Part shown: positions 5,166 to 57,934 of the stretch, piece by piece
Numbering within the stretch: position 1 is the stretch's first letter
How the letters are laid out: every line of letters starts with the position of its first letter
Assembly (NCBI GenBank): GCA_049317705.1
Contig: JBMOHT010000001.1
Coordinates: 1,267 to 65,266, forward strand
DNA from: Bacteroidota bacterium
GTDB taxonomy: Bacteria; Bacteroidota; Ignavibacteria; UBA10030; UBA8401
Length of the DNA: 64,000 nucleotides
Reading direction: 5' to 3'
Translations under genes and position numbers: made by a program
The notes under the pieces: model-generated
Database searches by the model: none
Seen by the model: only the letters and a program-made list of their open reading frames with translations
Told to the model about the DNA's origin: nothing

Positions 5166-5168
5166 ACT

Positions 5169-5396: not shown

Positions 5397-5431
5397 TAAT
5401 TTTAGACCATTGAATTGCTTGTGCAATATTT

Positions 5432-7537: not shown

Positions 7538-7689
7538 TGGATTGGCAGGAGAGTATATCACTGCTGATCGTTCTCATCAGTACGTTGCTTCTGATACGCT
7601 CAATGCTGAAAAAAAGGAAAACGAATTCGAACTGCGCTTCATGCGCTCTGATGAATTCACAGACGAAGAACAAATCCAACTCTCAATAA
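7537..7689 (+). CDS. FeoB-associated Cys-rich small membrane protein (not in ORF track, 50 aa)
   Basis: My own reading. The ATG at 7537 overlaps the feoB stop (TAATG). The product is MDWQESISLLIVLISTLLLIRSMLKKRKTNSNCASCALMNSQTKNKSNSQ, with stop TAA at 7687-7689. It has one TM helix, a basic stretch and a CxxC. Confidence 0.7.
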   Translation: MDWQESISLLIVLISTLLLIRSMLKKRKTNSNCASCALMNSQTKNKSNSQ

Positions 7690-7783
7690 TCGATAATATT
7701 ACATCGTTCACTTGCTTTGCTATATATCAATTGTCCATTGAACCACTCTCAATGAACTAAATCTTTTTTTCGGTAACGCTAAC

Positions 7784-8605
7784 ATGAGACACTTCACTTC
7801 TCAATCATTGCTCATCCTATTCATGCTCATTCTCCCTGCCGAATTCATTCAAGCGAACGAGCGGCGTTTCGGTTTCACGTATGAATCTTCTGTGCTCCCT
7901 GCCGGAGTACGGGAGATCGAATTATGGACTACCGACAGACGCGGGCGAGGATATTTCTATCATCGATTGGATCAGCGGATCGAATTTGAATTCGGCGTGA
8001 CGGACAACCTGATGTCAGCATTCTATCTTAATTCAACATCGCGGACCAAAGACGATAATGGAGACGCCCTTGGAGGAATGAACGCTTCATCCATAGAAGT
8101 CAGTATCTCCAATGAGTGGAAATATAAATTAATGGACAGAACGGCCGATCAATTCGGGTGCGCAATCTATGGTGAATTTACTCTTGCGACTGATATGTAT
8201 GGGCTCGAATCGAAATTGATCTTTGATAAACAAATTCAGCATATCCTTGTTGCTGCAGATATTACCGGCGAATATGAAGCATCGTCGGACATTAAAAACG
8301 GTATTGAAGAAATTGAGACAGAGGTCTCTCTCAAGCCGGGAATCGCCGCCGCTTATGTCGCAGACAACGGTTTCGGTGCAGGCATGGAATTACGGAGCAA
8401 TAATATCTTCATTTCGGGTTCATTACAACACGCCTCCCTCTTTGCCGGCCCCACTATTTCCTACGCTTCAGAGGCGATGTGGTTCACAATTTCATTCATG
8501 CCGCAGATCCATAGTTTTGCCGGTGGAACGACTGCGAGCAAAGATCTAGATCTGGGTGAATTTGAAAAATTTCAAACACGGCTATTGCTCTCGTTCCGTC
8601 TATAA
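7784..8605 (+). CDS. Putative outer-membrane beta-barrel protein (uncharacterised)
   Basis: 273 aa. Signal peptide MRHFTSQSLLILFMLILPAEFIQA. Alternating hydrophobic strands run throughout and the C-terminus is LLLSFRL. Confidence 0.55.
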   Translation: MRHFTSQSLLILFMLILPAEFIQANERRFGFTYESSVLPAGVREIELWTTDRRGRGYFYHRLDQRIEFEFGVTDNLMSAFYLNSTSRTKDDNGDALGGMNASSIEVSISNEWKYKLMDRTADQFGCAIYGEFTLATDMYGLESKLIFDKQIQHILVAADITGEYEASSDIKNGIEEIETEVSLKPGIAAAYVADNGFGAGMELRSNNIFISGSLQHASLFAGPTISYASEAMWFTISFMPQIHSFAGGTTASKDLDLGEFEKFQTRLLLSFRL

Positions 8606-41453: not shown

Positions 41454-44186
41454 CTATTTAATGAGCATCATTCTTCTCGTTTCGACATTCGATCCTGCAC
41501 GGAGCGTATAGAGATACATTCCTGATGCAAGCGAGGCACCGTCGAATCGTACCGAATAAGTTCCAGCACTTTGTTCTTCATTGACGAGTGAAGAGACTTC
41601 CCTTCCGATCATATCATATACTTTCAAGGAGACCATACCGCTCACCGGCAGCTGATAGGAAATTGATGTGGAAGGATTGAACGGATTCGGATAATTCTGC
41701 GACAATGCAAACTCGGACGGAACTTCAATGTTCACCGGTTTCACCGAGGTAATACCAAGCTGTGCGTTGGTCTTATTGGAATATACTTTTGCCGTGAACG
41801 CCTTGATCGGGAATGATGTGACCGTATTTCCCGAAGTGATCAACTGAGTCTGGTCGAATACGTCATACCATGTTGCGGCACCCAGCCACGGAACATTCGA
41901 CAAGGTCTGGTCAGCACCGCTCAGGTTGGCGACCACCATCACTTTTGAGCCGGTTGCTGCATCCTCAAATCCGTAGGCGAGCGATTTTTCTGTCTCGAAC
42001 CGATAGGACAGCATCAATGCACCATCATACAATGCCGGATTCTGAATACGCTGACGGATGAGCGTCTGGTAATACTTGAACTGTTCCTTTCCACGCGCCT
42101 CACCCATCAGACTCCATTCCAATGGACGGTAGGACAACTTTTGATTATCGCTTGTCCATCCGCGTGACGCGGTCATTTCCTGTCCCTGCCAGATCATCGG
42201 AACACCAAGCGATGTGAACGTGAACGTTGAATAGAGTTTATCTCGAAGCAGCGCTTCATTCAACGGAACCGATTGAAAATTCGTCATCTCATAGATGAGA
42301 GACTGTTCGTCGTGCGTGACCGTAGCATTGATCGGTTCGACCCGGCTCGTATAATTTGCGGGAGAAGCAGGTGTGTCATTTCCGCCGAACTCATACAGAC
42401 TGACGACATACTTCTCAATATCCGTGAGTGAGACATTCTTGAATCGCGCTTCATCGAACACCTTATCACGGAATGCATCATGCCAGCCGCTCGTCATACC
42501 GGAATAGTAGATCATGGCAGGACTCCCCGGCAGGTGCTCTGCGATCTGGTAGATCTTTCCTTTGTAGAGCGTATCAATACGGTTCGACCAGCCGAGAATG
42601 CCTTTGGTCGGCTCGTCCTTGTTCCAGCCCACCCCCTGCGTATAGTCATAACGGAAACCGTCCACTTTATATTCATCGATCCACATCTTCAGATTCTCAA
42701 AGATCAGTTCCTGCGTCTCACTGGTCCAGTGGTCCATATCCTTGAAGAACGCCAGATTGTCCTCGTTGTAGCGCATGTCGGAGTTCAGTTTGAAATACGG
42801 ATTCGCCGCTTCATCCGGCAGCATCTGCCATAATGGTCCGGTGTCGTTCTGATGATTGTAAACAACATCGAGGATGACGGCAATGCCGACCTTGTGTGCT
42901 TCATCGATCAGTTTCTTCAGATCAAGCGGTGTTCCATAGGCGGGCTCAATGGCGAAATAACTGTTCAGATCATAACCCCACGAGAAACCGGATTTCCCGA
43001 CGGAACCGTAATCGTTCACCGGCATCAGTTCGATCGCATTCACACCAAGAGATTTGAAATGCGAGAGCAGCAGAGCAACATTTGCAAAACCGGACTGACC
43101 TGCACCAAGTCCATAATATCCCCCGCCGAACTCGCCGACATTCAATTCATAGATGACCGTTTTGTTCAATGGCGGACGTTGATAGCCGGACGCCGTCCAC
43201 ACATAATTATCAGCCGAGATACCGGATGCTCCTGTAGAGAATCGTGTGCCGTACGTTCCGACATAGCGGCCGAACGGATCGGTGACCATCTTCCCGCCGT
43301 CAAGTTCATAGAGGTATTCATATTCCGTGTTCGCATCGAGTTTCACATTGAGCCACCAATTATCGGAGGAAGGATCTTTCTTCATCACACGCGGAGTCGC
43401 CGTTGCGACTGCTTGTCCGGCAGGAGCGATGCGGAGCACGACATAGCTTTTTCCGGGAACTCGCAGACGGAACGTAGTGGAATCACCCGAAGTTCCGGAT
43501 GCAGGAGTCACACCGTGTTTAGCATAGACGGGCATCGGAGCGGACTGCACTTCAAAGACGGAATTCTGATAGACGATGGAATCGCCTTTGTCCGTCTTTG
43601 CGACGATCTTGAAATAATTCGTTTTCGGAAGGGCCGTCGGCAGTGTATAATTCAGCGTCTGTTTCTCGCTGATGTAGGACGAGGTAATATCCGTCATCGT
43701 CGTAGAAAGCGCATTCACTCCGGTATACAACTTAACGGAGGAGATCACATCGGCATTCGTATGGACGATACCGACCGCGATCCGTGTGATATCGGATCCG
43801 GAAGTTTCCGTGAACAGCTCGAAGAAGAAGAGTTTCGTCAACCGGAGAACGGAATTGCTGTTATCATTCGGATTCTGTTCCGGATTGAGAGGATCAGGGT
43901 ACCATGAGCCGTCATTGAATTTGTATTGGTAGACAGAATCTCCGAGGGGAGTACGGGACGCATCATGGATCTTGAACACATATGTCTTCGTCCATGCAAG
44001 GATCACTGCATCATACGCCATGGTATTTGCCGTGGACCAGCCGCTGAAGACACCGGGGAGCGAGACCGGGGTCCCTGCACTTTTATGTGCACGGAATGTG
44101 ATCGTGACCGAATCACTTGAGCTCTGAGCAAAAAGATTGATCGTTAAGAATATTACCGCCGCCGCGCCCCGCATGATTGTTTTCAT
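41454..44186 (-). CDS. Extracellular GH13 pullulanase/isoamylase-type enzyme with a T9SS C-terminal sorting domain
   Basis: 910 aa with a signal peptide. E-set/CBM48-like modules are present. GH13 regions are ILDVVYNH, GFRYDYTQG and IAEH. The CTD is NYPNPFNPSTSISYQLPVSGMVSLKVYD...LYTLRAGSNVETRRMMLIK. Confidence 0.85.
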   Translation of the reverse strand: MKTIMRGAAAVIFLTINLFAQSSSDSVTITFRAHKSAGTPVSLPGVFSGWSTANTMAYDAVILAWTKTYVFKIHDASRTPLGDSVYQYKFNDGSWYPDPLNPEQNPNDNSNSVLRLTKLFFFELFTETSGSDITRIAVGIVHTNADVISSVKLYTGVNALSTTMTDITSSYISEKQTLNYTLPTALPKTNYFKIVAKTDKGDSIVYQNSVFEVQSAPMPVYAKHGVTPASGTSGDSTTFRLRVPGKSYVVLRIAPAGQAVATATPRVMKKDPSSDNWWLNVKLDANTEYEYLYELDGGKMVTDPFGRYVGTYGTRFSTGASGISADNYVWTASGYQRPPLNKTVIYELNVGEFGGGYYGLGAGQSGFANVALLLSHFKSLGVNAIELMPVNDYGSVGKSGFSWGYDLNSYFAIEPAYGTPLDLKKLIDEAHKVGIAVILDVVYNHQNDTGPLWQMLPDEAANPYFKLNSDMRYNEDNLAFFKDMDHWTSETQELIFENLKMWIDEYKVDGFRYDYTQGVGWNKDEPTKGILGWSNRIDTLYKGKIYQIAEHLPGSPAMIYYSGMTSGWHDAFRDKVFDEARFKNVSLTDIEKYVVSLYEFGGNDTPASPANYTSRVEPINATVTHDEQSLIYEMTNFQSVPLNEALLRDKLYSTFTFTSLGVPMIWQGQEMTASRGWTSDNQKLSYRPLEWSLMGEARGKEQFKYYQTLIRQRIQNPALYDGALMLSYRFETEKSLAYGFEDAATGSKVMVVANLSGADQTLSNVPWLGAATWYDVFDQTQLITSGNTVTSFPIKAFTAKVYSNKTNAQLGITSVKPVNIEVPSEFALSQNYPNPFNPSTSISYQLPVSGMVSLKVYDMIGREVSSLVNEEQSAGTYSVRFDGASLASGMYLYTLRAGSNVETRRMMLIK

Positions 44187-44188
44187 TG

Positions 44189-45592
44189 TTATTCCTCTTC
44201 CAGTGAAGTGATAAAGATCCTCGCAGTGCGCGGCGGTATATCGACCGTAACTGTGCCGCTGCGCGGTTTGAAGACCTTATTGGTGAATTCATCCCGCAGT
44301 TCCTTGATGCCGGGATTGACCGGCATGGTGATGCTCATGATCTTATCCCTGCGGTTGATCGCAACGTAGGCAAAATGCGAATTGAGCTGCCGTTCGAATG
44401 CGAATACTTTTGTTTGATCGTCCGCCGCCAGCGTCTTGAAATATCCGCGGCGCAGTGCGGGTGATTTTTTCCGGATCTGGATCAGTGACTGATACAATGT
44501 GAACAATTCCATATCCCATTTCTTCTCGTCCCACACCATCGTCTTCCGGCAGTCAGGGTCTTTCCCGCCTTCCATTCCGATCTCATCACCGTAATAGACC
44601 ATCGGAGCGCCCATGTATGTCATTTGAAATATCACGGACAGTTTCATCCGCCAGAATTCACCCTGGCAGAGCGTCAAATATCGTTCGGTATCGTGGCTTC
44701 CCAGCAGGTTCATCATCACCAATGAGTGGTAGCGGTGATGTGCATTCCGTAACGTCTCGAGTTGTTTGTCGAATTCACTCGTGTGGATCTTATCCTCGGC
44801 GAAATACTTCAGACACGCATCACGGAACCGGTAATTCATCACCGCGTCGAATTCATCCCCCTGCAGCCACGGTGTGGCGTCATCCCAGATCTCGCCGACG
44901 ATATAGCAGGCGGGATTGCGGGATTTCATGATAGTGCGGAATTCCTTCCAGAAATCATGCGGAATCTCGTTGGGGACATCCAGTCTCCAGCCATTCACAC
45001 GCTCAGACCAGTATTTCGTTACATCGAAGATATATTTTTTCACTTCCGGATTCTGAACCATCAGTTTCGGCAGCGAACCATATCCCCACCAGCATTCATA
45101 ATTCGGTTTATCCGGCGGAGCAACAGGATAGGAATAGATATTGAACCACGACGCATACGGAGAATCTTTTCCTTTTTCCTTCACATCCTTGAACGCAAAA
45201 TGGTCCGTTCCGACATGATTGAATACACCGTCGATCACGACCATGATATCGTGTACTTTGCATTGCATCATAAAACGGTCGAACAGCTGATTGGTCCCGA
45301 ATGCGGGATCGATCACGGAATAGTCCGACGTATTATATTTGTGATTGGAATTTGCCGCGAAGATGGGATTCAGATAGATGGCATTCACACCGAGCCGCTT
45401 CAGATGTCCGAGCCGGTTGATGATCCCTTGAAGGTCACCGCCGAAATAATTGTTCCCTTTCGGTTTGGCACCCCACTGTTCGGTATTCGGCGGATCGTTC
45501 GATGTATCGCCGTTCTCGAACCGTTCAGGAAATATCTGGTAGAACACGGCATCTTTCACCCAGTCAGGCACGATCACGGGAATATTCTGCAT
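44189..45592 (-). CDS. Cytoplasmic GH13 alpha-glucosidase/neopullulanase-cyclomaltodextrinase-type enzyme
   Basis: Contains VFYQIFPERF, GGDLQGI, IDGVFNHVG, GWRLDVPNE, VGEIWD and LLGSHDTER, and has no signal peptide. I moved the start to Met18 (45592) because codons 1-17 of the tracked ORF are the upstream terminator hairpin. Confidence 0.88.
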   Translation of the reverse strand: MQNIPVIVPDWVKDAVFYQIFPERFENGDTSNDPPNTEQWGAKPKGNNYFGGDLQGIINRLGHLKRLGVNAIYLNPIFAANSNHKYNTSDYSVIDPAFGTNQLFDRFMMQCKVHDIMVVIDGVFNHVGTDHFAFKDVKEKGKDSPYASWFNIYSYPVAPPDKPNYECWWGYGSLPKLMVQNPEVKKYIFDVTKYWSERVNGWRLDVPNEIPHDFWKEFRTIMKSRNPACYIVGEIWDDATPWLQGDEFDAVMNYRFRDACLKYFAEDKIHTSEFDKQLETLRNAHHRYHSLVMMNLLGSHDTERYLTLCQGEFWRMKLSVIFQMTYMGAPMVYYGDEIGMEGGKDPDCRKTMVWDEKKWDMELFTLYQSLIQIRKKSPALRRGYFKTLAADDQTKVFAFERQLNSHFAYVAINRRDKIMSITMPVNPGIKELRDEFTNKVFKPRSGTVTVDIPPRTARIFITSLEEE

Positions 45593-45621
45593 AGAGGTCA
45601 CTTCTTGTCTGGTGGATATAG

Positions 45622-45653
45622 AAAAGGCAGGGCAATTACTCACCCTGCCTTTT
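45622..45653 (-). terminator. Rho-independent terminator of the 1058-aa gene
   Basis: On the minus strand AAAAGGCAGGG-tgagtaattg-CCCTGCCTTTTC forms an 8-bp GC-rich stem followed by T4. Confidence 0.65.
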
Positions 45654-45715: not shown

Positions 45716-48700
45716 TTACTTCAGGAACATCATCTTCTTTACGGAAGTGAAGTTACCTGCTTCGATCTTGTAGAAGTACACGCCGCTGGACAATGAGTTT
45801 GCATTGAACGTTGCTTTGTAGTTGCCAACGGTCTGCATTTCATTGACGAGTGTTGCGACTTCCTGTCCAAGAACGTTGAACACCTTCAGGGAGACCATAC
45901 CATTCACAGGGATCGAATAGTTGATGACCGTTGAGGGGTTGAACGGGTTCGGATAGTTCTGTGTCAGTTCGAACTGTGTCGGTGCTGCACCGTCAACCTG
46001 TTTCACGCTCTTTGTTTCCAAAGCATAGTTCCACTGGTTGTAGTACAACGGATTGATGCTTCCGAACTGGCTTGCAATGGTTGCGGTAGCTGCAGCGTCA
46101 TTGATGTTTTCGATATGGTTGTTACCGAATCCGCCTTTGCCGCCTTCGTTATCGCCGCCCTTGATACCGAACTTGAATTCCTGACCAACAACGTTGTTCA
46201 GGGAGTCTTTGTAGAACTTGATCTGACGAGTGTAGATACGGTCTCCGGCAACAGCATCACCGTGTGTTCCGTTATCATACATGAAGCGCGTGGTATCGTC
46301 GATCAAGGACTGTCCCCAAGCATTCCATCCGCCTGCTGCCGGACCGTTGATTGCAACGCCCCATTTGTAGACAGAATCTTTGCTGGTAACATTGACTGTG
46401 TTCTGGATACCGAACAGCGTATCGCCCTTAGCAACCTGCCAGAATGCCGGTGCGAGGTTCACTGTGAACTTCACATCAACGTTCTGTGTCAGTTTGCGTG
46501 TATTGCGGAAGAACGGCCAGCGGTTCGCTTTGGTCTGATCTTTTGTGGTATCGACTGCTGAATTGGATTTTGCCGTCAACGGGAGCAAGCGGCGTTCTGC
46601 CAGCGTTACATCCGATCCGGTAAATCCGAAGTTGTAATATGATTCACGGAAATCCACACCATTCTTGACGATATAATACTGATACACCAGCGGTTTGCCG
46701 GTGCCGTCAGCTTTGATGTTGACGCCTCTGATCGATGAATCTGTTGCTGAATATACGTTGGAGAATGCCGATTTTACGAGATTCTTTGTTCCAACAAGTG
46801 AAGCGGACGATGCAAAACCATAACGAACCTGCACTGTATCTCCGATGGTATAGCCGTTGGTGGAGATAGCGCGGGACATATCAACCTGGAATTTCACGAT
46901 CGCTGTATCTGTTCCTGCCGGCGGTTTCACGCCAATATCATCCCACCATTTCCAGTAGAGTGTCGTATCGGCACTTCCGCGTTTGATGGTGAACGGACGA
47001 TCGGAAACACCTTCCCATTTCACAACATCGTTCGGTGTAGCATTGTTGATCTGGACGAATTTGAATGCATGTCCGATCGGAACGGTGATGGTGTCGGTAT
47101 TTGCTTTTTTCAACGGCAATTTGAATGTACCTGACCAGAAGTTCGGTCCGGTATAAGCAACGGATCCGCCGTTACCATGGTTTGCTTCACGTTTCAGTGT
47201 GAAGCCGGGGCCCCAACCGTTGAAGCTACCGCGGACGCCAACGCTCTGCGTTACCGGGTTGAAATCTTCCTGATTCTGCATGTTCACACGGAATGTCACT
47301 TCAAGTGAATCCGATTCAACATACGGGCGCCAGAAATGTGCCTGCTGTGCCGTTGAACCGTTCACGAATTGAAGTGCAATGGTCGTATCATTCTGTCCGA
47401 CAACCATTTTGCGGTTACCGTTGCCGTAGGAATTGATGTCATTTTCCCAGCCATTGTGTTCACCGGGATGACCGGCACCAACATTCGCCTGAGCATGTGT
47501 ATAGAGTTTGTACGGGAAATCAGCACCGGGAGCAAAGCGTGCTTTTGCCTGCCAGTAGTCACCGCCGATATTGGTGAACCGTACTGTCGAAGCGCCGTTC
47601 CAATCGAGCAGTCCGCCCGAAGCACCGCCGTCGCCGCGCATCTGAACGGTGGAGGTTGATTTCAATGTATCCGGAACCGATGAAGTATTCACAATGAATG
47701 TCACTTCAACGGAGCCCTGTTTCTTGAACATACCGGTGGAACCTGTGCCGCCGACGAGGATATGCGTAAGATCATAACCGCCTGCACCTCTGAATTCGGA
47801 CGTTGTTGACGGTGTCACCAATGCTGAGAATGATGTTCCGCCGTCTGTGGAGAGCCATGTACCTGCTTTTGCACCGCTGGTACCGACTGCCATCAGGTTC
47901 GTGGAGCCGCCGATCAGGTTCACTGTACGGACCTTTGTTGTTGCAAGGATAGCACCGGGAACGATCGCGATGGAATCGCTCCATGTTGCGCCGCCGTCAG
48001 TTGTTTTGTGGAACGGGTTGCCCTGTGTACCGGATTGACGACCGACACCCCAGCCGTTGTTTGCATCTTTGAAGGTGATCGAACGGAAATAGTAGTTCAC
48101 ATTTCCAACTGCATCTGCCACTTTGCTGACATGATGTGTCCATGTAACACCGCCGTCAGTCGATTTGATCAACGGAAGACCAACTCTGTTCGCAGCAGTC
48201 GCCTGGTAGTATGTTGCCCAGATCGTGTTGCCGATAGCATCGATGGATTTACCATATGCGGAAGAGGAGAATGTCTTTACGACGCCCTTCACTTCAGCAG
48301 GAATGGTAGTGATACGCGACCATGTTTTGCCTGCATCGGTGGTCTTCACCAAATGCATACCGAACCAGTCAGCATCACCAATAGCATATGCTGTTGTACC
48401 ATCAACAGCTTTTACGCCGTCGAAATACGCCGTGTCAACGTTGGAATATTTGTAAACAGTATCCCATTTTGCACCGCGATTCTCTGTTCTGAAGATGATA
48501 CCATCGTAGTTAGCAATAACTGCAGTGGAATCATTGAATGCGGCAATGTTCACATAACCGGCATTCGACGTCGGGGGCATTGCTGTTTTTGACCACGATG
48601 CACCGCCGTCTTTGGAATAGAACGTGTAATCCTGTGAACCGACCCAGCCGTTGGCCCAAACAACGCCGTTGGCTTTATAGTCGATCGCTAACACCGTGAG

Positions 48701-48892
48701 ACCGCTCAGACCTGCGACGTTTACCGGGGTCCAATCAGAACTCGGTGCCATGGCAGACGCCGGAGCGTTGGTGCTCATAACTTTTCTTGCTTCGCGTTCT
48801 TCTCTTAACTTTTCCTGACGTGCGGGATTAGCCGCGGCCAGAATGCCAAGAGCAACGCACGAAAGCAATACAACTTTTAGTGCATATTTCAT
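45716..48892 (-). CDS. Secreted BNR/Ycf48-like beta-propeller protein with repeated CBM-like beta-sandwich modules and a T9SS CTD
   Basis: 1058 aa. Six SxDxGxTW-type repeats (SKDGGASWS, TENRGAKWD, TTDAGKTWS, STDGGVTWT, TTDGGATWS, STDGGTSFS). Modules such as EVTFRVNM...VRGSFNGWG are present. The CTD is QNYPNPFNPSTVINYSIPVNGMVSLKVFN...KKMMFLK. Confidence 0.7.
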   Translation of the reverse strand: MKYALKVVLLSCVALGILAAANPARQEKLREEREARKVMSTNAPASAMAPSSDWTPVNVAGLSGLTVLAIDYKANGVVWANGWVGSQDYTFYSKDGGASWSKTAMPPTSNAGYVNIAAFNDSTAVIANYDGIIFRTENRGAKWDTVYKYSNVDTAYFDGVKAVDGTTAYAIGDADWFGMHLVKTTDAGKTWSRITTIPAEVKGVVKTFSSSAYGKSIDAIGNTIWATYYQATAANRVGLPLIKSTDGGVTWTHHVSKVADAVGNVNYYFRSITFKDANNGWGVGRQSGTQGNPFHKTTDGGATWSDSIAIVPGAILATTKVRTVNLIGGSTNLMAVGTSGAKAGTWLSTDGGTSFSALVTPSTTSEFRGAGGYDLTHILVGGTGSTGMFKKQGSVEVTFIVNTSSVPDTLKSTSTVQMRGDGGASGGLLDWNGASTVRFTNIGGDYWQAKARFAPGADFPYKLYTHAQANVGAGHPGEHNGWENDINSYGNGNRKMVVGQNDTTIALQFVNGSTAQQAHFWRPYVESDSLEVTFRVNMQNQEDFNPVTQSVGVRGSFNGWGPGFTLKREANHGNGGSVAYTGPNFWSGTFKLPLKKANTDTITVPIGHAFKFVQINNATPNDVVKWEGVSDRPFTIKRGSADTTLYWKWWDDIGVKPPAGTDTAIVKFQVDMSRAISTNGYTIGDTVQVRYGFASSASLVGTKNLVKSAFSNVYSATDSSIRGVNIKADGTGKPLVYQYYIVKNGVDFRESYYNFGFTGSDVTLAERRLLPLTAKSNSAVDTTKDQTKANRWPFFRNTRKLTQNVDVKFTVNLAPAFWQVAKGDTLFGIQNTVNVTSKDSVYKWGVAINGPAAGGWNAWGQSLIDDTTRFMYDNGTHGDAVAGDRIYTRQIKFYKDSLNNVVGQEFKFGIKGGDNEGGKGGFGNNHIENINDAAATATIASQFGSINPLYYNQWNYALETKSVKQVDGAAPTQFELTQNYPNPFNPSTVINYSIPVNGMVSLKVFNVLGQEVATLVNEMQTVGNYKATFNANSLSSGVYFYKIEAGNFTSVKKMMFLK

Positions 48893-49069: not shown

Positions 49070-50077
49070 TTAGAAAGTGATTCCGATCGCCAACGTCTGA
49101 ATTCCGCCGAATTTGCCGAATTCCTGGTATGCAAAATCAAAGGAAACGACATTTGCCCCGGTGATCTCATATTTTGCACCCGCACCGGCAGTGAACGTCT
49201 CTTCTTTTTCGGGCAAAAAGAGAGATTTCATACCCCCGCGGAGGAATATCGCATCGCGCCATGATAATTCTCCGCCGACATTGAGCATTTCAGCGCTGTC
49301 GCTCGGACGAAGAGCATCAGCAGCGATGATCAGTCTCATATCATCTGTTTTGAATGCATCGATGGAAACACCGGCACGGAAAAAGAGCGGCAGAGGACGG
49401 TCTTCAGTCTTGTATTGTGCAACGATCGTTGCATTGTTGCCGGATTCATTTGGGCGGGAATCGAAGTTATTATAGAGATCCTTACCGTCCAAACGCATAT
49501 CGGCTCCGAAGTTGGAGATGCTCATTCCGATGGTCAGTCCGTTGAAATCGGTCTTATATTTCAGTCCGACATCAAGGGCCATTGAACTGGCTGATTCATT
49601 CCAGATCTTCATCTGAATCAATTTTGCCGTCGCACCGATAGCGAATTTATCCGTCAGATTGCGTGCATAGGAAATACCGACTGCCAGATCGGAAGCGGTC
49701 CATGTCTCTTCCCCGCCGTTCTGACTGAATTCGGTCGTGAGCATCTCTTCACCGTAATTCAGCTGCGTCACATTCACACCGATCGCGCCGCCGTCTCCAA
49801 GATCAACTGTCACACCGACCCAGTCGAATTTAGTGTCGACCAGCCACGCAGTGTGCGAGACCAGCACTTGAGAATATCCCAGCTGAGAGATCGCACCGGG
49901 ATTATAATAGAGTGCCGATGCATCGTTCGCAACGGCGACATATGCTCCGCCGAGTCCGATACCTCGGGGACCGACTGCAATGCCGAGGAACGGCGCCGCA
50001 GAAGTTCCGACCTTGGACTGCGAGAATGCAGGAAGAGCGATGAACAACATGAGAACGATTGATAATACTTTTTTCAT
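49070..50077 (-). CDS. PorV/PorQ-family outer-membrane beta-barrel protein (locus-embedded paralogue)
   Basis: Signal peptide MKKVLSIVLMLFIALPAFSQ. Contains GTSAAPFLGIAVGPRGIGLGGAYVAVANDASALYYNPGAISQL, the PorV/PorQ N-terminal signature. Ends in F (LAIGITF). Confidence 0.75.
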   Translation of the reverse strand: MKKVLSIVLMLFIALPAFSQSKVGTSAAPFLGIAVGPRGIGLGGAYVAVANDASALYYNPGAISQLGYSQVLVSHTAWLVDTKFDWVGVTVDLGDGGAIGVNVTQLNYGEEMLTTEFSQNGGEETWTASDLAVGISYARNLTDKFAIGATAKLIQMKIWNESASSMALDVGLKYKTDFNGLTIGMSISNFGADMRLDGKDLYNNFDSRPNESGNNATIVAQYKTEDRPLPLFFRAGVSIDAFKTDDMRLIIAADALRPSDSAEMLNVGGELSWRDAIFLRGGMKSLFLPEKEETFTAGAGAKYEITGANVVSFDFAYQEFGKFGGIQTLAIGITF

Positions 50078-50114: not shown

Positions 50115-53100
50115 TTATTTGATCACCGCGATCTTACCGGATTTTGTTCCGGAAGATGACTCAATGACATAGAAGTAAACGCCGAACGCAACATCGAGAT
50201 TCTCTTTCGTCTTCACATCCCATTTGATGGTGCCATTCTGAATTGAACCATCCTGATGCAGTGTACGGATATGCTCACCGCGTGCGGTATAGATGGAGAC
50301 CTTCGCATCCTGAGGCACATTCTGGAACTCGATCTTCCGTTCTCCTCTGCCGAATGTTCCGGCGGCCGGCGGTGTTTCGCCGTATGCCTGAACAACGTAA
50401 GGATTCGGAACGACTCTGACTGATGAGAGTGACGGTGAGACATTCCCCACAACCACTTTCGGTTTCTCGGTCGTGAAATAGAACTTATCCTCTTTACGGA
50501 ATGATTTGCGTGTCCGTAATTTCAGCGTGTCTCCTGTTCCGAATGTGTAGACGGTATCAGGACCGAATGATGGTTTTAAGAAATAGACCGTCCATGTATA
50601 GATCAATGAATCTTTTTTATTTTTTTCAAAGAATAGCAATTGATCATCGGATGACATTTTGCCGGGATTGATATTGTCCAACCAAAGGAATGATACCTTC
50701 TTATTTTCCGTGATATTCTTCACGGTAAAGTTCGTCGGTGTCGGCGGAAGCCCATAAAGATCAGCAGTTGTATCGATTATCGAATTAGAAAAGACAATAT
50801 TGTAATCGGCTGCATTTTCTGAAGCATAAGTGTCATAGACGCCGTTGCCGTCAATATCAAGATCCACCGTGGAGAAGGTAAATGCATATGCTTTGTTCAG
50901 ATTGGAGAATTTGGAGAGCGAATCGATCAGCGAGATCTTCCAATCGTTGGTAAAAGCCAGCTGAACACCGTCGAAGATGTCCGTGTCATACGTTTCACGG
51001 ACGTATGGACTGTTATTGATATAGGGACTCTTCGCCACGGGATAATACTGATACCGGATCGAATACTTCCGCAGATTATTGGTATCCGGCTGCAGATCGT
51101 ACCGAGCTTTTGCACGGATAGATCCGCGTTCAAGATTCAGGATATATTTTGACGTATCGACCGGTGTCCCGTCCTGTTTCGTTATAGTGATGCTTCCCTT
51201 CACCAGATTCGTCTTCGGCAGAAGAGCCGTTATCGTATCTATCTTTGAAGGAGCAAACGTGCCGTTATAATAAGTCGTATCGCGAACATAATAATAGGTC
51301 GTTACGGGTGAGAATTTTCCGCTGTCCCTCGTATCGAGGAACGATACTTCATATGTACTCCCGCTGATCTTTGATTCGTCGACCACTTTATAGTAGACAT
51401 TACCTGTTGCAACGACCGAAGCTGCTTTGGGAACTTTTACTGACGACGGCGGAGGCGTGTAACCGGAGACCTTCTTTCCCGGCACTACGATGGCGACGTT
51501 CTGTGAAGCCCCGCGGATACGGCCTGCCTGATCGATATCGATCTTCCAGCCGTTCTCTGACGGGAAGATACCGGTCACTTCATCGCCGTTATCATACGCA
51601 ACGATCACATAGTAATATGTCTTTCCGTTCACCACGTCATAATCCGCTGTATCATGGACCAGACCGGTGTTGGAACCGAGCTTATATGTGAATCCTGCCG
51701 CATCGTCGAAGATCGCAGCCGGTGCGCGGTAATATCCGCTGATGCTGTCCTTCAAGTCCACCTGGAATTTTGCATCATACCCTTTTCTGTTTCCGTCGGC
51801 ATCCGTTACAGAGAATGCATCGTTGAATTCATAATCCGTTGCTTTATAGATCTTGTATCCCTGAAAATCTTTGATCTTCAGAACGGGATCGATCGCATTC
51901 TCTGCTCTCCGGTCCCAATACAATTTTACTTTTCCGTCGCCGGCGACCGCAGTCAATGTCGGCACGGGTTCCGGTGCGATCGGGAACTGATAGTTTGCAT
52001 CATAGATCTTCTGCACGGTCTGTTTGTGTTTCAGCAGATCGGTGATATCATCCTCACGTGAACCGCCGTTGCCGCCGCCGTAGACGAGTGCAAGCGAGAA
52101 CCGTTCCGTCTTTTTGGAAAGCAGCGGGAAGTATCCGGATGAGTACGTGAAGTCGCCGTCCTGACCGTATTCGGGTTTGTTGGCAACGATCGATTTCGGC
52201 ACGGAGAACACGCCGGGTTTCATATCGCCCCAGAGGATCTCATCATCGCCGAGATAGATACCGTTGGCCGGAGTGAAATACTTGAAACTCGTCAGACCGA
52301 TCTGATCGGATTCATCAACATCCGTCTTATCGATATTCGGTTCACCGGGAAGACCGGTATCCGTTCCGTTCACCGAGTACCCTGATGAAGGAAGACCGTC
52401 CGCTTCACCGGCATCCTTCGTCCCTGATACACCGTCCATACCGACGTCATCGAATCCGATATTCCAATCCTTGTCGTTGTCCACCAGGTCATCCCTGCGT
52501 TCATCGATCATCGCGAACGGACCGCCGTTGAATGCGGGATTATAGGTAAGGTAACGGACAGGACGAAGGATATCGATCAAGGTCTTCGGCGGGATATCGT
52601 CGGATGTCTTCACCTGTCTGAAATGCAGGTAGTAGTTCTCATCGATGATTCCGTCAAGGTCATTATCAATACCGTCGAATGCATTCGGGTTGACGGTCGG
52701 TACGCCGGAAACGATGATCACATTTCCTTCCGCCAGTTTCGTTGTTCCCGCCGTAACAGATACTGTTCCGCCGCGCGTGTTGAAAACGGTCGTGCCCGCA
52801 GCGACTGTAACGATCTGTCTGCTGAAGTCATTGTTGATCAGTACGACTTTGGCGCCGGCATTGATCTTTGTGGAATCAAAATCTGTTGCGACGAATAACG
52901 ATGTCGGAGATCCGACAACTTTCTTGTCGACATCACCGTCGTTGTCGATCGCATCGTACGGATTTCCCGGACTTTCGAGGAATGCATATCCGACCATTCC
53001 GACACTTCCCTGCCAGAACGGATTGCGGGCGCAATTCCTGTCGAAATCGCCGGTGTAGGTGATATTCTCGTTCACATCGTAGAAGGACCAGTCATCATCA

Positions 53101-53900
53101 TATTCATTGAAATTCTGTGTTCCGGTCACACCGACCAATGTTCCCACAAGCATACCGAATGTTGCGCGGTCATAGTTGGATGTGCTCGTATTGGTGATCT
53201 CATACAGCCAGAAAATATTGTCCTGAGCAAGGAACTGGCTCCACTGCATACCGCGGACCTTCACGTTCAATCCAAGTCCGTTCCGCGATGTATTGTTGGA
53301 ATCCGGTTTGAATGCAATGCCCAGACTGTTATTGTTCGCAAAGCTGTAACGGATGTCATTATTATCATCCATCACTACGTAACTCTCCTGATTCGCGCTG
53401 GAACGTTTTCCGAAATATCCGTTCCACGATCCCTGCCATCCCGGATCCTGTCCGTCGTTCAATTTATCGGGCCATGATGTCGGCCAGGTGGTTGGGTCAT
53501 CACTCATCGCGATGCTCTGTTTTGCGGGATTGAAGTATCCGTTCACCGGCATGAATGTCCACGGTTTGCCGCCGCCGGATTTGTCATCCGTATCGAACGA
53601 TGATGCGGGACGCGAGACAGGACTCGTCACGACCGAATGGAATGTCTGTCCTGCGGTCTTCACTTCCGCACCGACGATGAGCGAAACGTCGCCGACATAT
53701 CCGTTCGTGGAATAGATCCATGCGCCGCGAGGCCGTGTATCACCCGGCTGACCGATCACACCCCAGTTACCAAAGACCGATTTCACTCGGTTGGCGTTGT
53801 GAACGGCTGAGCGGTAATACTGCGAACCGGATTGGGAGAACGCTCTCTCGGATCCGATCACGAGAACTAACGCAAGAATTGATGAGAGTATTTTTTTCAT
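50115..53900 (-). CDS. 1261-aa secreted protein of unknown function with Ca-binding-type Asp repeats and a T9SS-like CTD
   Basis: Signal peptide MKKILSSILALVLVIGSERAFSQ. DxDxDG-type loops are present (IDNDGDVDK, DGIDNDLDGIIDEN, DDLVDNDKDWN, DDVGMDG). The C-terminus is VVPNPYVV...GVYFYVIESSSGTKSGKIAVIK. It lies 14 nt downstream of the TonB receptor gene. Confidence 0.6.
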   Translation of the reverse strand: MKKILSSILALVLVIGSERAFSQSGSQYYRSAVHNANRVKSVFGNWGVIGQPGDTRPRGAWIYSTNGYVGDVSLIVGAEVKTAGQTFHSVVTSPVSRPASSFDTDDKSGGGKPWTFMPVNGYFNPAKQSIAMSDDPTTWPTSWPDKLNDGQDPGWQGSWNGYFGKRSSANQESYVVMDDNNDIRYSFANNNSLGIAFKPDSNNTSRNGLGLNVKVRGMQWSQFLAQDNIFWLYEITNTSTSNYDRATFGMLVGTLVGVTGTQNFNEYDDDWSFYDVNENITYTGDFDRNCARNPFWQGSVGMVGYAFLESPGNPYDAIDNDGDVDKKVVGSPTSLFVATDFDSTKINAGAKVVLINNDFSRQIVTVAAGTTVFNTRGGTVSVTAGTTKLAEGNVIIVSGVPTVNPNAFDGIDNDLDGIIDENYYLHFRQVKTSDDIPPKTLIDILRPVRYLTYNPAFNGGPFAMIDERRDDLVDNDKDWNIGFDDVGMDGVSGTKDAGEADGLPSSGYSVNGTDTGLPGEPNIDKTDVDESDQIGLTSFKYFTPANGIYLGDDEILWGDMKPGVFSVPKSIVANKPEYGQDGDFTYSSGYFPLLSKKTERFSLALVYGGGNGGSREDDITDLLKHKQTVQKIYDANYQFPIAPEPVPTLTAVAGDGKVKLYWDRRAENAIDPVLKIKDFQGYKIYKATDYEFNDAFSVTDADGNRKGYDAKFQVDLKDSISGYYRAPAAIFDDAAGFTYKLGSNTGLVHDTADYDVVNGKTYYYVIVAYDNGDEVTGIFPSENGWKIDIDQAGRIRGASQNVAIVVPGKKVSGYTPPPSSVKVPKAASVVATGNVYYKVVDESKISGSTYEVSFLDTRDSGKFSPVTTYYYVRDTTYYNGTFAPSKIDTITALLPKTNLVKGSITITKQDGTPVDTSKYILNLERGSIRAKARYDLQPDTNNLRKYSIRYQYYPVAKSPYINNSPYVRETYDTDIFDGVQLAFTNDWKISLIDSLSKFSNLNKAYAFTFSTVDLDIDGNGVYDTYASENAADYNIVFSNSIIDTTADLYGLPPTPTNFTVKNITENKKVSFLWLDNINPGKMSSDDQLLFFEKNKKDSLIYTWTVYFLKPSFGPDTVYTFGTGDTLKLRTRKSFRKEDKFYFTTEKPKVVVGNVSPSLSSVRVVPNPYVVQAYGETPPAAGTFGRGERKIEFQNVPQDAKVSIYTARGEHIRTLHQDGSIQNGTIKWDVKTKENLDVAFGVYFYVIESSSGTKSGKIAVIK

Positions 53901-53914
53901 AGAGAGTGCCCTGA

Positions 53915-56857
53915 TTAAAATTCGATCGTCGCGCCGACTTCGATCCTGCGCGGTTCGGAATAATTCTGCGGATTCGTGTAATAATCTGAAATGGTGTTGA
54001 TATACGGTTTCTGTCCGGAGAGCAATGCTTCGCGCTCGTATTTCGTTTCACCAGCTCTGCCGGTATCGCCGTAGACGCCGGTCTCATTCTTTGTATCGAA
54101 GATATTATTCACTCTCATGAAGAGTGTCACTTTCAACGCATCGAGCGAGATATTCTTGTATACGCGGACGTCGGTATTGAAATAGGAAGGTTTGATCTCA
54201 GAGTTGGTCAGGAACACGGTCACATCACTCGTCACATCAGGTGTATACGGTGTGCCGCTGCCGTATTGACTGATGATGCTTCCTCCCCACGTCTCCTCTG
54301 AATATGAGAAGATACCATTGATGGTGTGCCGCTGGTCCCATCCGAGCGGTGTCAGCTGCACTTCGGGAAGCTGTCCGCCTGCCACCTGATTACGGGCCTG
54401 GTTCGGATCCGATGCGCTTCCGCGTGCGATCTGGAACGTATAATCCACTGCAAGGGACATGCCCTGTGCGAACCGTTTGTCCAGCGAAAGGATGAAACCG
54501 CGGACAAAGCCGAAATCGCTGTTCACATATTTTGTATAGGTGCGTGATGCGAATCCGCCGCCGATCGGGATCTGATCCGCGCGTGAACCGGTGAGGTTAC
54601 GGATATCGCGGAGATACGCTGTGACATCGATGCTCATGTCGTCGGTCAGCTGCTGCTGAAGCCCGATCTCACCGTTGATCGTCTGTTCCGGTTTCAGATC
54701 GGCATTCCCGGTCGGTGCTCCGCTATGGTCAACATTACCGGTCCCTTCGCCGACCTTGAATCCTGGATTCGCATACAAACGTTCAAAATTCGGGGTCTGG
54801 AAGAAATGACCGTATGAGAAATGGATCACACCGCGGTCGGTGATCGGGAAGGATGCGCCGAAGCGGGGACTGATCTTGAATTTCGATGAAGCTTTTTTAT
54901 ACCAATACGTTCTGCGGTCTGCGACTGTTTTTGCTTTTTCGATTCCGTCCTGAATTCCGTTCCCGTTCGTATCAAAGAATGTGTTGATGACCTTTGCGGG
55001 AGAATAGATATTCGGATCCTCATCATCGGCAAGGACATTGGCATCGGGTTCAAAATAGTCCACCCGAACACCGATGTTGATGATAAGGTCCTTGAATTCC
55101 ATCTTATCCTGAAGATAACCGGAAAGTTCGATCGGTTTGTGTGTATACGTATCGTGATAATTTGAAGAATCGCTCTCGATGTACGTGGAGATATACGGAC
55201 TTGACTGGCCGTTCTTATAGGAAAGCTGACCCGGAACAGGGCGCAGCGTCAGGTCATCCATAAATACTTTATGCTGACGCACTTCAACGCCGGCCTTCAC
55301 GAAATGCTCGTTGCTCACCTGACTGCTCAGATCGAACTTCAGCAGACCAGTGGTCGTTGCACGCTGATACCGTCCAAGATCTGAACCGCCCGTGCTGTAT
55401 GAATACGTGCTTTGAGCGCGGCCGAGATTCGCAAGATCGGGATGGGTGTATCGGGTGTCGTAAGGATTTTCGTAGAGGTAATGTTTGAAGGTCTTTTCGA
55501 AATATGATCCGCCGAGAGTATAGAACGTTGTCGTGCTCAGTGTGTGGGTCAATTGGAAGATACCGGTATAACTCTTTGTATAATTCTTTCCCTGACCGTC
55601 CGGATTATACTGGAAGTCACGGTTGTAATCCTGCGATTCAACATTGTCATAGATACCGGTGATATTCAATTTCAGTTCGGGAGTGATCTTCATGGCAAGT
55701 TTTGCCTGCAGATATACTTTATCATTCCATCCCATCGGAACTGTCTTTCCGTCCCCTTTTCCGTTCGTGTAGAGATTCGTGAATGCTCTATAAGCGGAAT
55801 CGGCCTTTGCTTTGTTGATGGAATCCGCCTGCGCAAATGTCAGCGAACCGCCGGGGGTCACAAATTTAACATTGGCGAGTGAATAGATCCTATCGTTCAA
55901 AGTGTCCGTACCGAGGATGTACACTTCGTCTTTATCGAACCGTTTGGCTATAGCTGTGCTCGGAGTATACCGGCGGATCCCGTTCAAATAGCCGCCGTAA
56001 TGGATATTCCGACCGTTAAGATAGAGTGAGACATCCTTTCCGACGAGCGGACCGCTGATACTTCCTTCAATATTGCGGATGTTGAGCGGTTCAAATTTTT
56101 CGATCCCTTTGAAGATATTTCCGTGATTACTGAGGAAGTCACCAGCATATGCGGTAACGCTCCCTGAATACTTTTCCGCACCTTCACGAGTGACGATATT
56201 CACGATACCGGACATTGCCTGGCCGTATTCCGCATTGAATGCGCCGGAAAGGACCTGAAGTTCCTGCACCATACTCGGATTGACATCAACAACAGCGCTG
56301 CCGTTGAACACGTCCGTCACCGGCACACCGTCGATCCAATATGCAGTCTCACCGGAACGTCCGCCCCGGATACTCCCTGCGACGTTACCGGCCTGCAGAT
56401 TGATCACCTGGCTGATCTCTGTTACAGGAAGCTGCTTGATATCATCGCCGCCGACGACTGCGGTCGTCGAGGTAAGGTCCTTCTGCACCAGCGGACGTTC
56501 AGCAGTGATCACGACCTCATCACCGACGACGGTCTCTTCGCTGATCTTAAAATCCTGACGGGTGGTAAGGTCCGATGCAACACGAATGTTGGAGTAACTG
56601 ACTGGTGAATAACCGATGGACGATGCGCGGATGGTATACGTACCCGGCTGAAGATTCAGGATGAGATAATTTCCCTCAAAATCCGTCACCGCACCGTATG
56701 AAGTTCCGACAAGGATGATATTCACACCCGGAAGGTCTTCACCGGTCTTTGCATCGGTGATCTTTCCGACGATCTTACCGGTTGTGCCGGCAAATGAAAC
56801 GGAAGTAAGTGAAAGGAATGTGATGAATATTGCGAGAACGGTAACAATTTTTTTCAT
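53915..56857 (-). CDS. TonB-dependent receptor with an N-terminal carboxypeptidase-regulatory-like domain (SusC-type architecture)
   Basis: 980 aa with a signal peptide. The CarboxypepD_reg domain is GKIVGKITDAKTGEDLPGVNIILVGTSYGAVTDFEGNY. A plug domain follows, then a long barrel ending in RRIEVGATIEF. Confidence 0.9.
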   Translation of the reverse strand: MKKIVTVLAIFITFLSLTSVSFAGTTGKIVGKITDAKTGEDLPGVNIILVGTSYGAVTDFEGNYLILNLQPGTYTIRASSIGYSPVSYSNIRVASDLTTRQDFKISEETVVGDEVVITAERPLVQKDLTSTTAVVGGDDIKQLPVTEISQVINLQAGNVAGSIRGGRSGETAYWIDGVPVTDVFNGSAVVDVNPSMVQELQVLSGAFNAEYGQAMSGIVNIVTREGAEKYSGSVTAYAGDFLSNHGNIFKGIEKFEPLNIRNIEGSISGPLVGKDVSLYLNGRNIHYGGYLNGIRRYTPSTAIAKRFDKDEVYILGTDTLNDRIYSLANVKFVTPGGSLTFAQADSINKAKADSAYRAFTNLYTNGKGDGKTVPMGWNDKVYLQAKLAMKITPELKLNITGIYDNVESQDYNRDFQYNPDGQGKNYTKSYTGIFQLTHTLSTTTFYTLGGSYFEKTFKHYLYENPYDTRYTHPDLANLGRAQSTYSYSTGGSDLGRYQRATTTGLLKFDLSSQVSNEHFVKAGVEVRQHKVFMDDLTLRPVPGQLSYKNGQSSPYISTYIESDSSNYHDTYTHKPIELSGYLQDKMEFKDLIINIGVRVDYFEPDANVLADDEDPNIYSPAKVINTFFDTNGNGIQDGIEKAKTVADRRTYWYKKASSKFKISPRFGASFPITDRGVIHFSYGHFFQTPNFERLYANPGFKVGEGTGNVDHSGAPTGNADLKPEQTINGEIGLQQQLTDDMSIDVTAYLRDIRNLTGSRADQIPIGGGFASRTYTKYVNSDFGFVRGFILSLDKRFAQGMSLAVDYTFQIARGSASDPNQARNQVAGGQLPEVQLTPLGWDQRHTINGIFSYSEETWGGSIISQYGSGTPYTPDVTSDVTVFLTNSEIKPSYFNTDVRVYKNISLDALKVTLFMRVNNIFDTKNETGVYGDTGRAGETKYEREALLSGQKPYINTISDYYTNPQNYSEPRRIEVGATIEF

Positions 56858-56899: not shown

Positions 56900-57934
56900 T
56901 TATTGTTGATGGAACACATATTTTTTGTTAGCACCGCAGCTTGCACGGACCACGAGCGACGGTTTGAAGTCCACCGATGTGACCGGTGCATTCGGATTCT
57001 CGATCCGTTCCAGCATCTTCTTGACGGCCAGTTCACCCATCTTGAACATCGGCTGGCTCATGGTCGTCAGATCGAAATTCTTTGCGAGTTCCACATCATC
57101 AAAACTGACGATCGCGACATCACCGGGGACGCTGAAACCGCTTTCACGCAGAGCAGCAAGAACGCCGATGGCCTGGATATCGCTGGATACGAAGAATGCG
57201 TTCGGCATCTTCGTCCCGCGTGCAATGAACTCTTTCATGCTGTGGTATCCGGATTCCCTGCTGAATCCGTCATTCTTTGCGTCCGGACTGATCATAATGA
57301 GGTCATCACTGACCTTGATACCGCGGTCGGACAAGGTAGATCGAAAACTGGAAAGACGTTCGCGTGCCGGAGAACTTTTCAGATTTGCATTGATCATTCC
57401 GATGGAGGTGTGTCCTAGTGACAACAGATGCTCCGTAGCGATCCTCGCCCCCATGGCATTATCAACACGGATTGAATCGAATAACGGATGGAATGTATCG
57501 ACCAACACGAGCGGGATCTTTCGGTCAAGGATCTCCTGAGCATACTGTTCAGGCAGTTCCAATGAAAAAAGCAATGTTCCGTCCACTCTCCCTTTTCGCA
57601 TTGACCGCTGAAGGTATTCTTCCACCTGATCCTGATTGTTGGCGCCGTGAATGATCAGATCATATCCCAATGTTGTCAGTGTTTCCTGGACCCCTTGAAG
57701 GACCTCAATGAAGAAATAATTCGTGAAGAAAGGAATGATGGCGCTGAGTGTATTGGATCGTTTGCGGGCCAATGCCTGAGCAAATGCATGCGGCTGATAG
57801 TTCAGCCGGCGGGCAATAGTAATAACGCGTTCGCGGGTCTCTGAAGTAACATTTGCGCTGTTATTCAAGACCCGAGAAACTGTACCAATCCCTACATTCG
57901 CTTCTCTGGCAATGTCGTATATCGTAACGGACAA
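56900..57934 (-). CDS. LacI-family transcriptional regulator
   Basis: 344 aa. The HTH is VTIYDIAREANVGIGTVSRVLNNS, followed by a periplasmic-binding-fold sugar sensor domain. Confidence 0.95.
   Translation of the reverse strand: MSVTIYDIAREANVGIGTVSRVLNNSANVTSETRERVITIARRLNYQPHAFAQALARKRSNTLSAIIPFFTNYFFIEVLQGVQETLTTLGYDLIIHGANNQDQVEEYLQRSMRKGRVDGTLLFSLELPEQYAQEILDRKIPLVLVDTFHPLFDSIRVDNAMGARIATEHLLSLGHTSIGMINANLKSSPARERLSSFRSTLSDRGIKVSDDLIMISPDAKNDGFSRESGYHSMKEFIARGTKMPNAFFVSSDIQAIGVLAALRESGFSVPGDVAIVSFDDVELAKNFDLTTMSQPMFKMGELAVKKMLERIENPNAPVTSVDFKPSLVVRASCGANKKYVFHQQ

Follow-up and report, generated by a model that had tools for sequence, protein, structure and literature searches.

What takes the place of SusD in a starch locus of a bacterium in which no SusD is found? 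SusC/SusD is the textbook model of polymer capture in the phylum Bacteroidota, and the tools that predict polysaccharide utilization loci (PULs) seek that pair. The window analyzed here, a stretch of 64,000 nucleotides from a genome of the class Ignavibacteria (GenBank assembly GCA_049317705.1, contig JBMOHT010000001.1, positions 1,267 to 65,266), holds a LacI-controlled alpha-glucan (starch) utilization locus. At its head, a gene for a TonB-dependent receptor (TBDR) is followed on the minus strand by a gene for a 1261-aa protein, P0001 (50115..53900 in window coordinates). The initial annotation had described P0001 as an orphan in the position normally occupied by SusD. We found instead that P0001 belongs to a large family and is the middle member of an invariant triad, consisting of a TBDR, a protein with a variant type IX secretion system (T9SS) C-terminal domain (CTD) and an outer-membrane barrel of the PorV/PorQ family. 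On balance, the sequence features lead us to lean, by a little, towards a P0001 that is exported by the T9SS, held at the cell surface by the barrel and active as a partner of the TBDR that captures or caps alpha-glucans.

An invariant gene triad

The 1261-codon open reading frame (ORF) at 50115..53900 was uninterrupted, with its stop codon at 50115-50117 included, and lay on the minus strand, which the initial annotation had left unstated. The spacing of 14 nt that it had given between receptor and P0001 was also correct, as the TBDR ORF ends at 53915 and P0001 starts at 53900. The label of orphan did not hold. Among the candidates that a word-indexed search scored, 1,703 were homologs at E ≤ 1e-3; the top 120 of these were 50-78% identical to P0001 over the full length. 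When the representatives at 50% identity were searched exhaustively, 1,372 clusters were matched, and for 340 of these E was ≤ 1e-30. The homologs were labelled "hypothetical protein" throughout and came mostly from metagenome-assembled genomes (MAGs) of Ignavibacteria or Bacteroidota. In a sample of 301 genomes drawn evenly from the phylum, a match at E ≤ 1e-10 was present in 141 genomes and in 82 of 143 genera, and a strong match, defined as E < 1e-40, in 120 genomes. MAGs labelled 'Synechococcus sp. UW140' and 'Acidobacteriota' (L019, L023, L013) carried copies of the Ignavibacteria-type locus that were 64-87% identical; the public records have probably been misbinned or mislabelled in these cases.

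The gene order was compared in 17 related loci from species-representative genomes, three Neomarinimicrobiota MAGs (35-44% identity) included. A TBDR was encoded upstream in all 12 loci with enough flanking sequence on that side, and all 14 with enough on the other side had a PorV-like barrel downstream. The genes of six distant representatives, at 33-43% identity, each lay between a CarboxypepD_reg/Plug/TonB barrel gene and a gene for a PorV-type protein of 310-376 aa, and the order TBDR, middle protein, barrel was found in 4/4 genomes from other families of the phylum. Homologs that commonly occur without an adjacent TonB receptor, which the initial annotation had named as evidence that would count against a receptor partner, are thus not what the family shows, because the gene order with a TBDR was invariant in every locus examined. 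The third gene, for the PorV/PorQ-family barrel, had been overlooked and is an obligatory member.

The 980-aa TBDR of the window (53915..56857, minus strand) consists of a CarboxypepD_reg-like N-domain, a plug and a barrel, as seen from Pfam matches to TonB_dep_Rec_b-barrel (7.9e-26), CarbopepD_reg_2 (1.2e-18) and Plug (1e-7). It failed the SusC/RagA model TIGR04056, with 76.5 bits over residues 28-229 only against a cut-off of 368, and no TBDR of the genome passed that cut-off. In one related locus (L014, region 5057-7985), the TBDR ortholog was split into ORFs 5057-5932 and 6165-7985, either through a frameshift or faulty assembly or because it is a pseudogene. The barrel gene (49070..50077, minus strand) scored 188 bits with NF033709 PorV_fam (cut-off 90). 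Its ORF as listed begins with a GTG at 50113, one base past the P0001 stop. The ATG at 50077 appears the likelier start, as it gives the barrel a typical signal peptide (MKKVLSIVLMLF...) and leaves a gap of 37 nt after the P0001 stop.

The assembly that contains the window is 96% complete, and 20 members of PorV_fam scored over the cut-off in it. Approximately 14 cassettes were found in which a TBDR is followed by a CTD protein of 680-1261 aa and then by a PorV-like barrel. The paralogous middle proteins are old, with 25-48% identity; approximately eight share body domains with P0001, and the remainder share the tail only. In two further cassettes, the barrel came directly after the TBDR and the CTD proteins were encoded upstream of the TBDR (L038, C120 2-4127, and L037, C10 10797-21095, contig coordinates). 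Because the barrel directly follows the TBDR in both, this arrangement suggests that the link between TBDR and barrel is conserved in itself. The triad on C35 (L034, 16178-17701) had a 507-aa protein encoded right after the barrel, a second barrel of the FadL type by a weak FadL/Toluene_X match.

A search of the whole genome with PF07980 found no SusD, and the Bacteroides thetaiotaomicron control was positive. Among the genomes of the window's own family, a P0001 protein was present in 8/8 and SusD in 0/8. In the 2013 genome paper of Melioribacter roseus (PMC3534657), Mros0761-0759 were named SusC, SusD and SusE; their starch operon has GH13 and GH31 genes on its flanks. Given that the related genome studied here has no SusD, these three genes may really be a triad of TBDR, middle protein and barrel.

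The C-terminal domain and its cognate barrel

The N-terminus of P0001 (MKKILSSILALVLVIGSERAFS|QSG) resembles a Sec signal peptide, as the initial annotation had proposed. The peptide was read by eye as residues 1-22 (53835..53900) and ends AFS|QSG. A lipobox Cys is absent, and because the sole Cys of P0001 is residue 293, the protein is not a lipoprotein.

At the other end, residues 1157-1261 (50118..50432) form a variant T9SS CTD that resembles those of PorZ and PorU. The shape of the C-terminus had been recognized before as that of a T9SS CTD, and this part of the claim stands; the tail is, however, a PorZ-like variant and not an ordinary type A tail. Among the NCBIfam models, the last 105 residues matched the PorZ C-terminus best (E 5.9e-6), together with the PorU C-terminus (E 2.5e-4). 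TIGR04183 (21.4 bits, cut-off 23) and PF18962 (18.3 bits, cut-off 27) both remained below their cut-offs, and the Pfam matches to CHU_C (E 6.5e-4) and Por_Secre_tail (E 2.9e-3) were weak. When a hidden Markov model (HMM) of the family tail was run against the same genome, 157 ORFs were matched, always at the extreme C-terminus. These matches make the tail a homolog of T9SS CTDs, and the highest scores were those of proteins adjoining PorV-like barrels.

A comparison of the triad tails with the ordinary CTDs of the genome showed an insertion of approximately 15 residues after PNPY, often with GRGxRK, a second insertion, of 5 residues, before the GVY motif and the ending GKxAxIK. The two groups also differed in the models that they matched. 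Of 24 triad tails from diverse loci, 21 matched PorZ (best E 2.3e-11), 16 matched PorU and 14 matched TIGR04183, whereas all eight ordinary CTDs from the same genome passed TIGR04183 (36-51 bits) and only one of the eight matched PorZ. The barrels leaned in a corresponding direction, with a PorQ score above the PorV score in 9/10 triad barrels, all of them below both equivalog cut-offs. The barrel of the window scored 100 bits with the PorQ model and 67 bits with the PorV model and, being below both cut-offs, is neither a true PorQ nor a true PorV.

The T9SS itself is encoded in the genome (SprA/Sov 1060 bits, PorU 979 bits), and porU lies directly upstream of the true porV. The PorU sortase gene (C5:25336-28635) contains one in-frame TAG, so that it is listed as two ORFs, one of 1210 aa and a CTD piece of 136 aa; the TAG is explained either by an error of sequencing or by a genuine disruption or readthrough.

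Among T9SS proteins, retention of the CTD is known for two, PorZ and PorU. Both are held at the surface with the CTD in place, PorZ by PorQ and PorU by PorV (PMC10947112, PMC10202324). Type B CTDs need neighboring cognate barrels of the PorP/SprF type for secretion and anchorage (PMC9143113, PMC12618676). By analogy with these two precedents, we infer that the CTD of P0001 would be retained and held by the barrel.

The likeness to PorZ-PorQ and PorU-PorV lies in a CTD protein resembling PorZ or PorU beside a barrel of the PorV/PorQ family, of the 14-strand type, in an order that mirrors porU-porV. The principle of an uncleaved CTD held by a barrel is established for those pairs, and for the triad it is read from sequence likeness. 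In contrast, the body of P0001 is unrelated to the beta-propellers of PorZ and to the peptidase of PorU, and the triad pair occurs approximately 14-fold per genome, joined to a TBDR in catabolic loci. With the type B systems, such as SprB/SprF of Flavobacterium johnsoniae and PG1035/PorP, the triad shares a substrate-specific barrel adjoining the CTD substrate, and there the barrel is required for both secretion and surface anchorage of the substrate. The triad differs from them in its CTD, which is type A- or PorZ-like and not TIGR04131, in its PorV/PorQ-family barrel, in the link to a TBDR, which is new, and in having no link to gliding.

The same observations could be accommodated if P0001 were ordinary T9SS cargo, with the barrel as a private secretion shuttle. 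The CTD would then be cleaved, and the protein would be an untethered glycan binder that is released or linked to lipopolysaccharide (LPS). We consider this unlikely. The genome does encode the PorU sortase, and for type B CTDs the pairing of shuttle and substrate genes has been established (PMC12618676, PMC9143113). The CTD of P0001 is homologous to type A CTDs, but the triad CTD specifically resembles those of PorZ and PorU, which are retained. A shuttle would also leave unexplained both the invariant linkage to the TBDR and the C120 and C10 cassettes, in which the barrel follows the TBDR.

The body of the middle protein

Between the signal peptide and the CTD, no Pfam or NCBIfam model covered the body of P0001, in agreement with the initial annotation, which could not match it to any family. 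Matches to DUF6802, Nm-ACP and Rota_VP6, seen in Pfam and NCBIfam searches with the whole protein and with thirds of it, were rejected as sub-threshold noise. A sequence-profile search of the PDB gave nothing at E ≤ 1. The SusD_RagB and SusD-like models of Pfam did not match P0001.

An AlphaFold model of residues 23-1165, built on a 48-sequence alignment (mdf95244bd954; pLDDT 79.3, pTM 0.68), was nearly all beta, and Foldseek against the PDB returned for the whole model only generic tandem sandwiches of the FN3, pilin and complement types. Residues 646-1156 (50433..51965) were accordingly modelled as FN3/Ig-like beta-sandwich domains, from the AlphaFold model and the FN3 and pilin tandem matches. 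The N-terminal half, residues 23-645 (51966..53834), modelled alone (m4a02b2702dd5; pLDDT 78.7, pTM 0.83), was predicted to be one compact all-beta unit. Its Foldseek neighbors, at E 0.011 to 1 only, were dextran dextrinase, GH94 cellobiose phosphorylases, GH149, GH116, GH65, a PL26 lyase, dermatan-sulfate epimerase, the YidC P1 domain and LacZ. What they have in common is presumably the non-catalytic beta-supersandwich of the galactose-mutarotase-like fold. This gives a weak hint of a supersandwich scaffold in the N-terminal half, and not of membership in a glycoside hydrolase (GH) family. The models contained one long helix only and no (alpha/alpha)6 or TIM barrel, and the predicted fold is all-beta and non-catalytic-looking.

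The initial annotation had counted four or more acidic loops of the DxDxDG type and compared them to thrombospondin type 3 and dockerin calcium sites. Such loops exist, but the strict DxDxDG pattern was found at two sites only (residues 412 and 1013-1015). The looser pattern [DN]x[DN]x[DN] occurred at 178, 319-321, 412, 474-476, 700 and 1013, and no Pfam model for thrombospondin type 3 or dockerin matched P0001. Three [IV]DNDxD loops and the acidic cluster at 467-535 were invariant or nearly so in the 48-homolog alignment; in the AlphaFold models, the acidic loops had low pLDDT. The conserved acidic loops of the N-terminal half are at 316-323, 412-421 and 467-535.

Among the paralogs, the most widely kept segment was residues ~583-857, with a helix and FN3-like domains, in addition to the CTD. 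Residues ~860-1155 were variable, the N-terminal region varied too, and a small beta domain inserted in the N-terminal half at ~351-445 was missing from the paralogs. In the distant members P0226, P0236, P0257, P0191 and P0237, propellers (Reg_prop or BNR) replaced the C-terminal sandwich region, and these propeller-bearing proteins were still encoded within TBDR/PorV triads (loci L041 and L042). The conservation pattern fits a constant docking core to which variable ligand-binding modules would be joined.

The fold neighbors of the N-terminal half, weak as they are, are all carbohydrate-active enzymes (CAZymes), and in the 48-homolog alignment Asp, Glu and Trp residues of this half are invariant by the dozen. 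P0001 could then be an unrecognized enzyme, carbohydrate-active or processing, that uses acidic residues and Ca2+ sites to act on its substrate before uptake by the TBDR. We regard this as improbable. Pfam, NCBIfam, the PDB profile search and Foldseek of the AlphaFold models gave no GH or protease assignment, which bears out the initial impression that no catalytic motif can be recognized, and no HMM, PDB-sequence or fold match pointed to a catalytic domain. In the fold neighbors, catalysis is the task of (alpha/alpha)6 or TIM barrels, which P0001 does not have. Furthermore, the same conserved core is found in loci for chemically unrelated substrates, peptidase loci included, and the locus of the window already encodes two GH13 enzymes and a GH57 enzyme.

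Genomic setting and a proposed role in uptake

The locus of the window begins with a gene for a LacI-family regulator (56900..57934, minus strand; Pfam LacI and Peripla_BP_3), which is kept directly upstream of the TBDR in close orthologous loci. The triad is followed, on the same strand, by a gene for a 1058-aa BNR-propeller protein with an ordinary type A CTD (45716..48892; Pfam Por_Secre_tail and PSII_BNR, TIGR04183 50.9 bits). This protein had a weak match to the carbohydrate-binding module (CBM) family CBM_20, with E 0.0012, below the cut-off, and its gene comes after the barrel in orthologous loci, those of Neomarinimicrobiota included. Next are a GH13 alpha-amylase or cyclomaltodextrinase-like enzyme (44189..45643, minus strand; Pfam Alpha-amylase 2.1e-71), for which the NCBIfam maltodextrin glucosidase and cyclomaltodextrinase models both scored below cut-off, and a GH13 pullulanase-like enzyme with a type A CTD (41454..44186, minus strand; Pfam Alpha-amylase and Por_Secre_tail, TIGR04183 44.3 bits). 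The last is a GH57 enzyme with CBM48-like and CBM20 modules (38729..41314, minus strand; Pfam Glyco_hydro_57 2.4e-57, CBM_48 and CBM_20). Close orthologous loci retained LacI, the BNR/CBM protein and both GH13 genes, and the Neomarinimicrobiota triads were likewise flanked by GH13 genes. Promoter and terminator scans at the locus did no better than on shuffled sequence.

P0001 does lie where SusD would be expected, directly 3' of the TBDR in a locus with LacI, two GH13 genes and a GH57 gene, and this is a likeness of position only. Elsewhere in the genome, the neighbors of paralogous cassettes were CBM9/GH9/GH2, GH94 with a PF10091 glucanase, or GH43. Other triads had neighbors of the peptidase type, with M16 and M28/M1-PDZ after the triad on C6 (L030, 3960-16730) and with DcuC, RpiR and an S51 peptidase flanking the triad on C67 (L032, 7296-18329). 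Because these last two adjoin peptidases, the triad is not confined to glycan loci. The neighboring genes differ from cassette to cassette, and the module therefore marks loci for substrate utilization in general, in much the way that SusC/D marks them in Bacteroides.

In the model that we propose for the window, Sec would carry P0001 into the periplasm, and the T9SS would take it across the outer membrane by means of the CTD. The CTD would remain uncleaved and would not be transferred to LPS as in ordinary cargo, but would be captured by the cognate downstream barrel, as for PorZ-PorQ and PorU-PorV. The all-beta ectodomain would then be tethered beside or over the TBDR, where it could capture alpha-glucan chains or oligosaccharides and pass them to the transporter. 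The job done in Bacteroides by SusD, with SusE/F, would thus be done without a lipoprotein.

Several observations weigh against this model. That P0001 reaches the surface, keeps its CTD, is anchored by the barrel, touches the TBDR and binds glycans is in each case inferred. The parts of the triads co-diverge (Mantel r 0.73 for TBDR and barrel, 0.64 for TBDR and CTD, 0.53 for CTD and barrel; all p ≤ 0.002), but since cassette duplication alone would yield these correlations, they indicate a co-inherited unit and not physical contact. The CTD of P0001 is just under the TIGR04183 cut-off and its PorZ likeness is modest (25 bits). The supersandwich assignment rests on Foldseek matches of E 0.01-1 in which the aligned part of the target was not seen, and the many invariant Asp and Glu residues could form an unrecognized active site. 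The triads next to peptidases mean that the conserved core, taken alone, probably has no specificity for glycans. A detectable barrel downstream was missing for two proteins whose CTD is of the triad type (C79:1-3182 and C127:7268-11618). On C79, the gene after this protein is a 493-aa ORF resembling SurA/PpiC.

The distribution of SusD must be counted here as well. The P0001 family and SusD were both present in 70 of the 301 genomes; 50 had the P0001 family only, 94 SusD only and 87 neither (Fisher p 0.29). A replacement of SusD by the triad, judged by presence and absence, was therefore rejected, and the triad is not simply a substitute for SusD. Of the contrasts between the two, only that in abundance holds. 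SusD-rich genomes, with at least seven hits, had the P0001 family in 2/57 cases, compared to 118/244 of the others (p ~9e-12, not phylogeny-corrected).

The initial proposal, that P0001 is no enzyme but partners the receptor at the surface, fits the invariant synteny with the TBDR, the lack of any GH or protease match and the absence of SusD; the fit is indirect. It is very improbable that the TBDR is an Oar-like, TonB-energized export or assembly device for the middle protein and the triad a machine for surface display or adhesion: its CarboxypepD_reg N-domain is found also in Oar-type proteins and some triad TBDRs elsewhere match the Oar-like barrel model PF25183, but the TBDR of the window does not, a complete T9SS is available for export in the genome, and the triads lie within catabolic loci with regulators, CAZymes and peptidases, as is the case for importers.

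The capture or cap partner that we favor can be compared with SusC/SusD (RagA/RagB) and SusE/F. Both types of partner are encoded directly after a TBDR with a CarboxypepD_reg-like N-domain at the head of a regulated CAZyme locus, occur in many paralogous copies per genome for different substrates and have a presumed role in capture or capping. In contrast to SusD, which is an alpha-helical, TPR-containing protein of ~550 aa, P0001 is predicted to be all-beta, has 1261 aa and shows no relation in sequence or fold. It also differs in not being a lipoprotein, in having a T9SS CTD and in coming with a PorV/PorQ-family barrel, and its TBDR fails the SusC model. A further parallel is given by the 'alternate lids' of Bacteroides, non-SusD proteins encoded adjacent to non-SusC TonB-dependent transporters (TBDTs), whose outer face they are predicted to cover (Price et al., bioRxiv 10.1101/2023.03.17.533168). 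These are likewise non-homologous partners encoded beside non-SusC TBDTs, but they are small lipoproteins for small substrates, whereas P0001 is giant and has a T9SS tail and its own barrel.

No published description of the triad of TBDR, CTD protein and PorV-like barrel was found in the literature searched. A September 2026 review of bacterial glycoside transporters makes no mention of PorV, the T9SS or Ignavibacteria, and the Caldithrix genome paper contains nothing relevant to the triad. The parts, namely partners of TBDTs and pairs of CTD protein and barrel, are known, and their combination looks undescribed. The triad looks like an undescribed way for bacteria that lack SusD to give a nutrient importer a surface partner. 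A broader proposition, to which we give a little less than an even chance, is that the triads form an unrecognized class of nutrient-uptake machine, with a TBDT and a T9SS-delivered cap that sits on a private PorQ-like barrel through an uncleaved PorZ-like CTD, for glycans and for peptides, and that this class is widespread in Ignavibacteria, in other non-Bacteroidia lineages of the phylum and in Neomarinimicrobiota.

Sediments, wastewater reactors and the ocean harbor uncultured Ignavibacteria and Marinimicrobia in abundance. The genome studied here degrades starch, beta-glucans, arabinan or xylan, and peptides without SusD or a true SusC, and it has approximately 14 three-gene modules instead. 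If the proposed reading is true, large parts of the FCB (Fibrobacterota-Chlorobiota-Bacteroidota) group would have an import architecture that is invisible to current PUL annotation, and the PorQ-PorZ-type interaction of the T9SS would have been recruited as a general surface-anchoring device. This would amount to a lipoprotein-free alternative to SusC/SusD and to a second, non-secretory use of the interaction between a CTD and PorV/PorQ. It would also give a testable function to more than 1,000 protein clusters annotated as "hypothetical" and would provide a three-gene signature by which substrate-utilization loci may be recognized in uncultured Ignavibacteria and Marinimicrobia.

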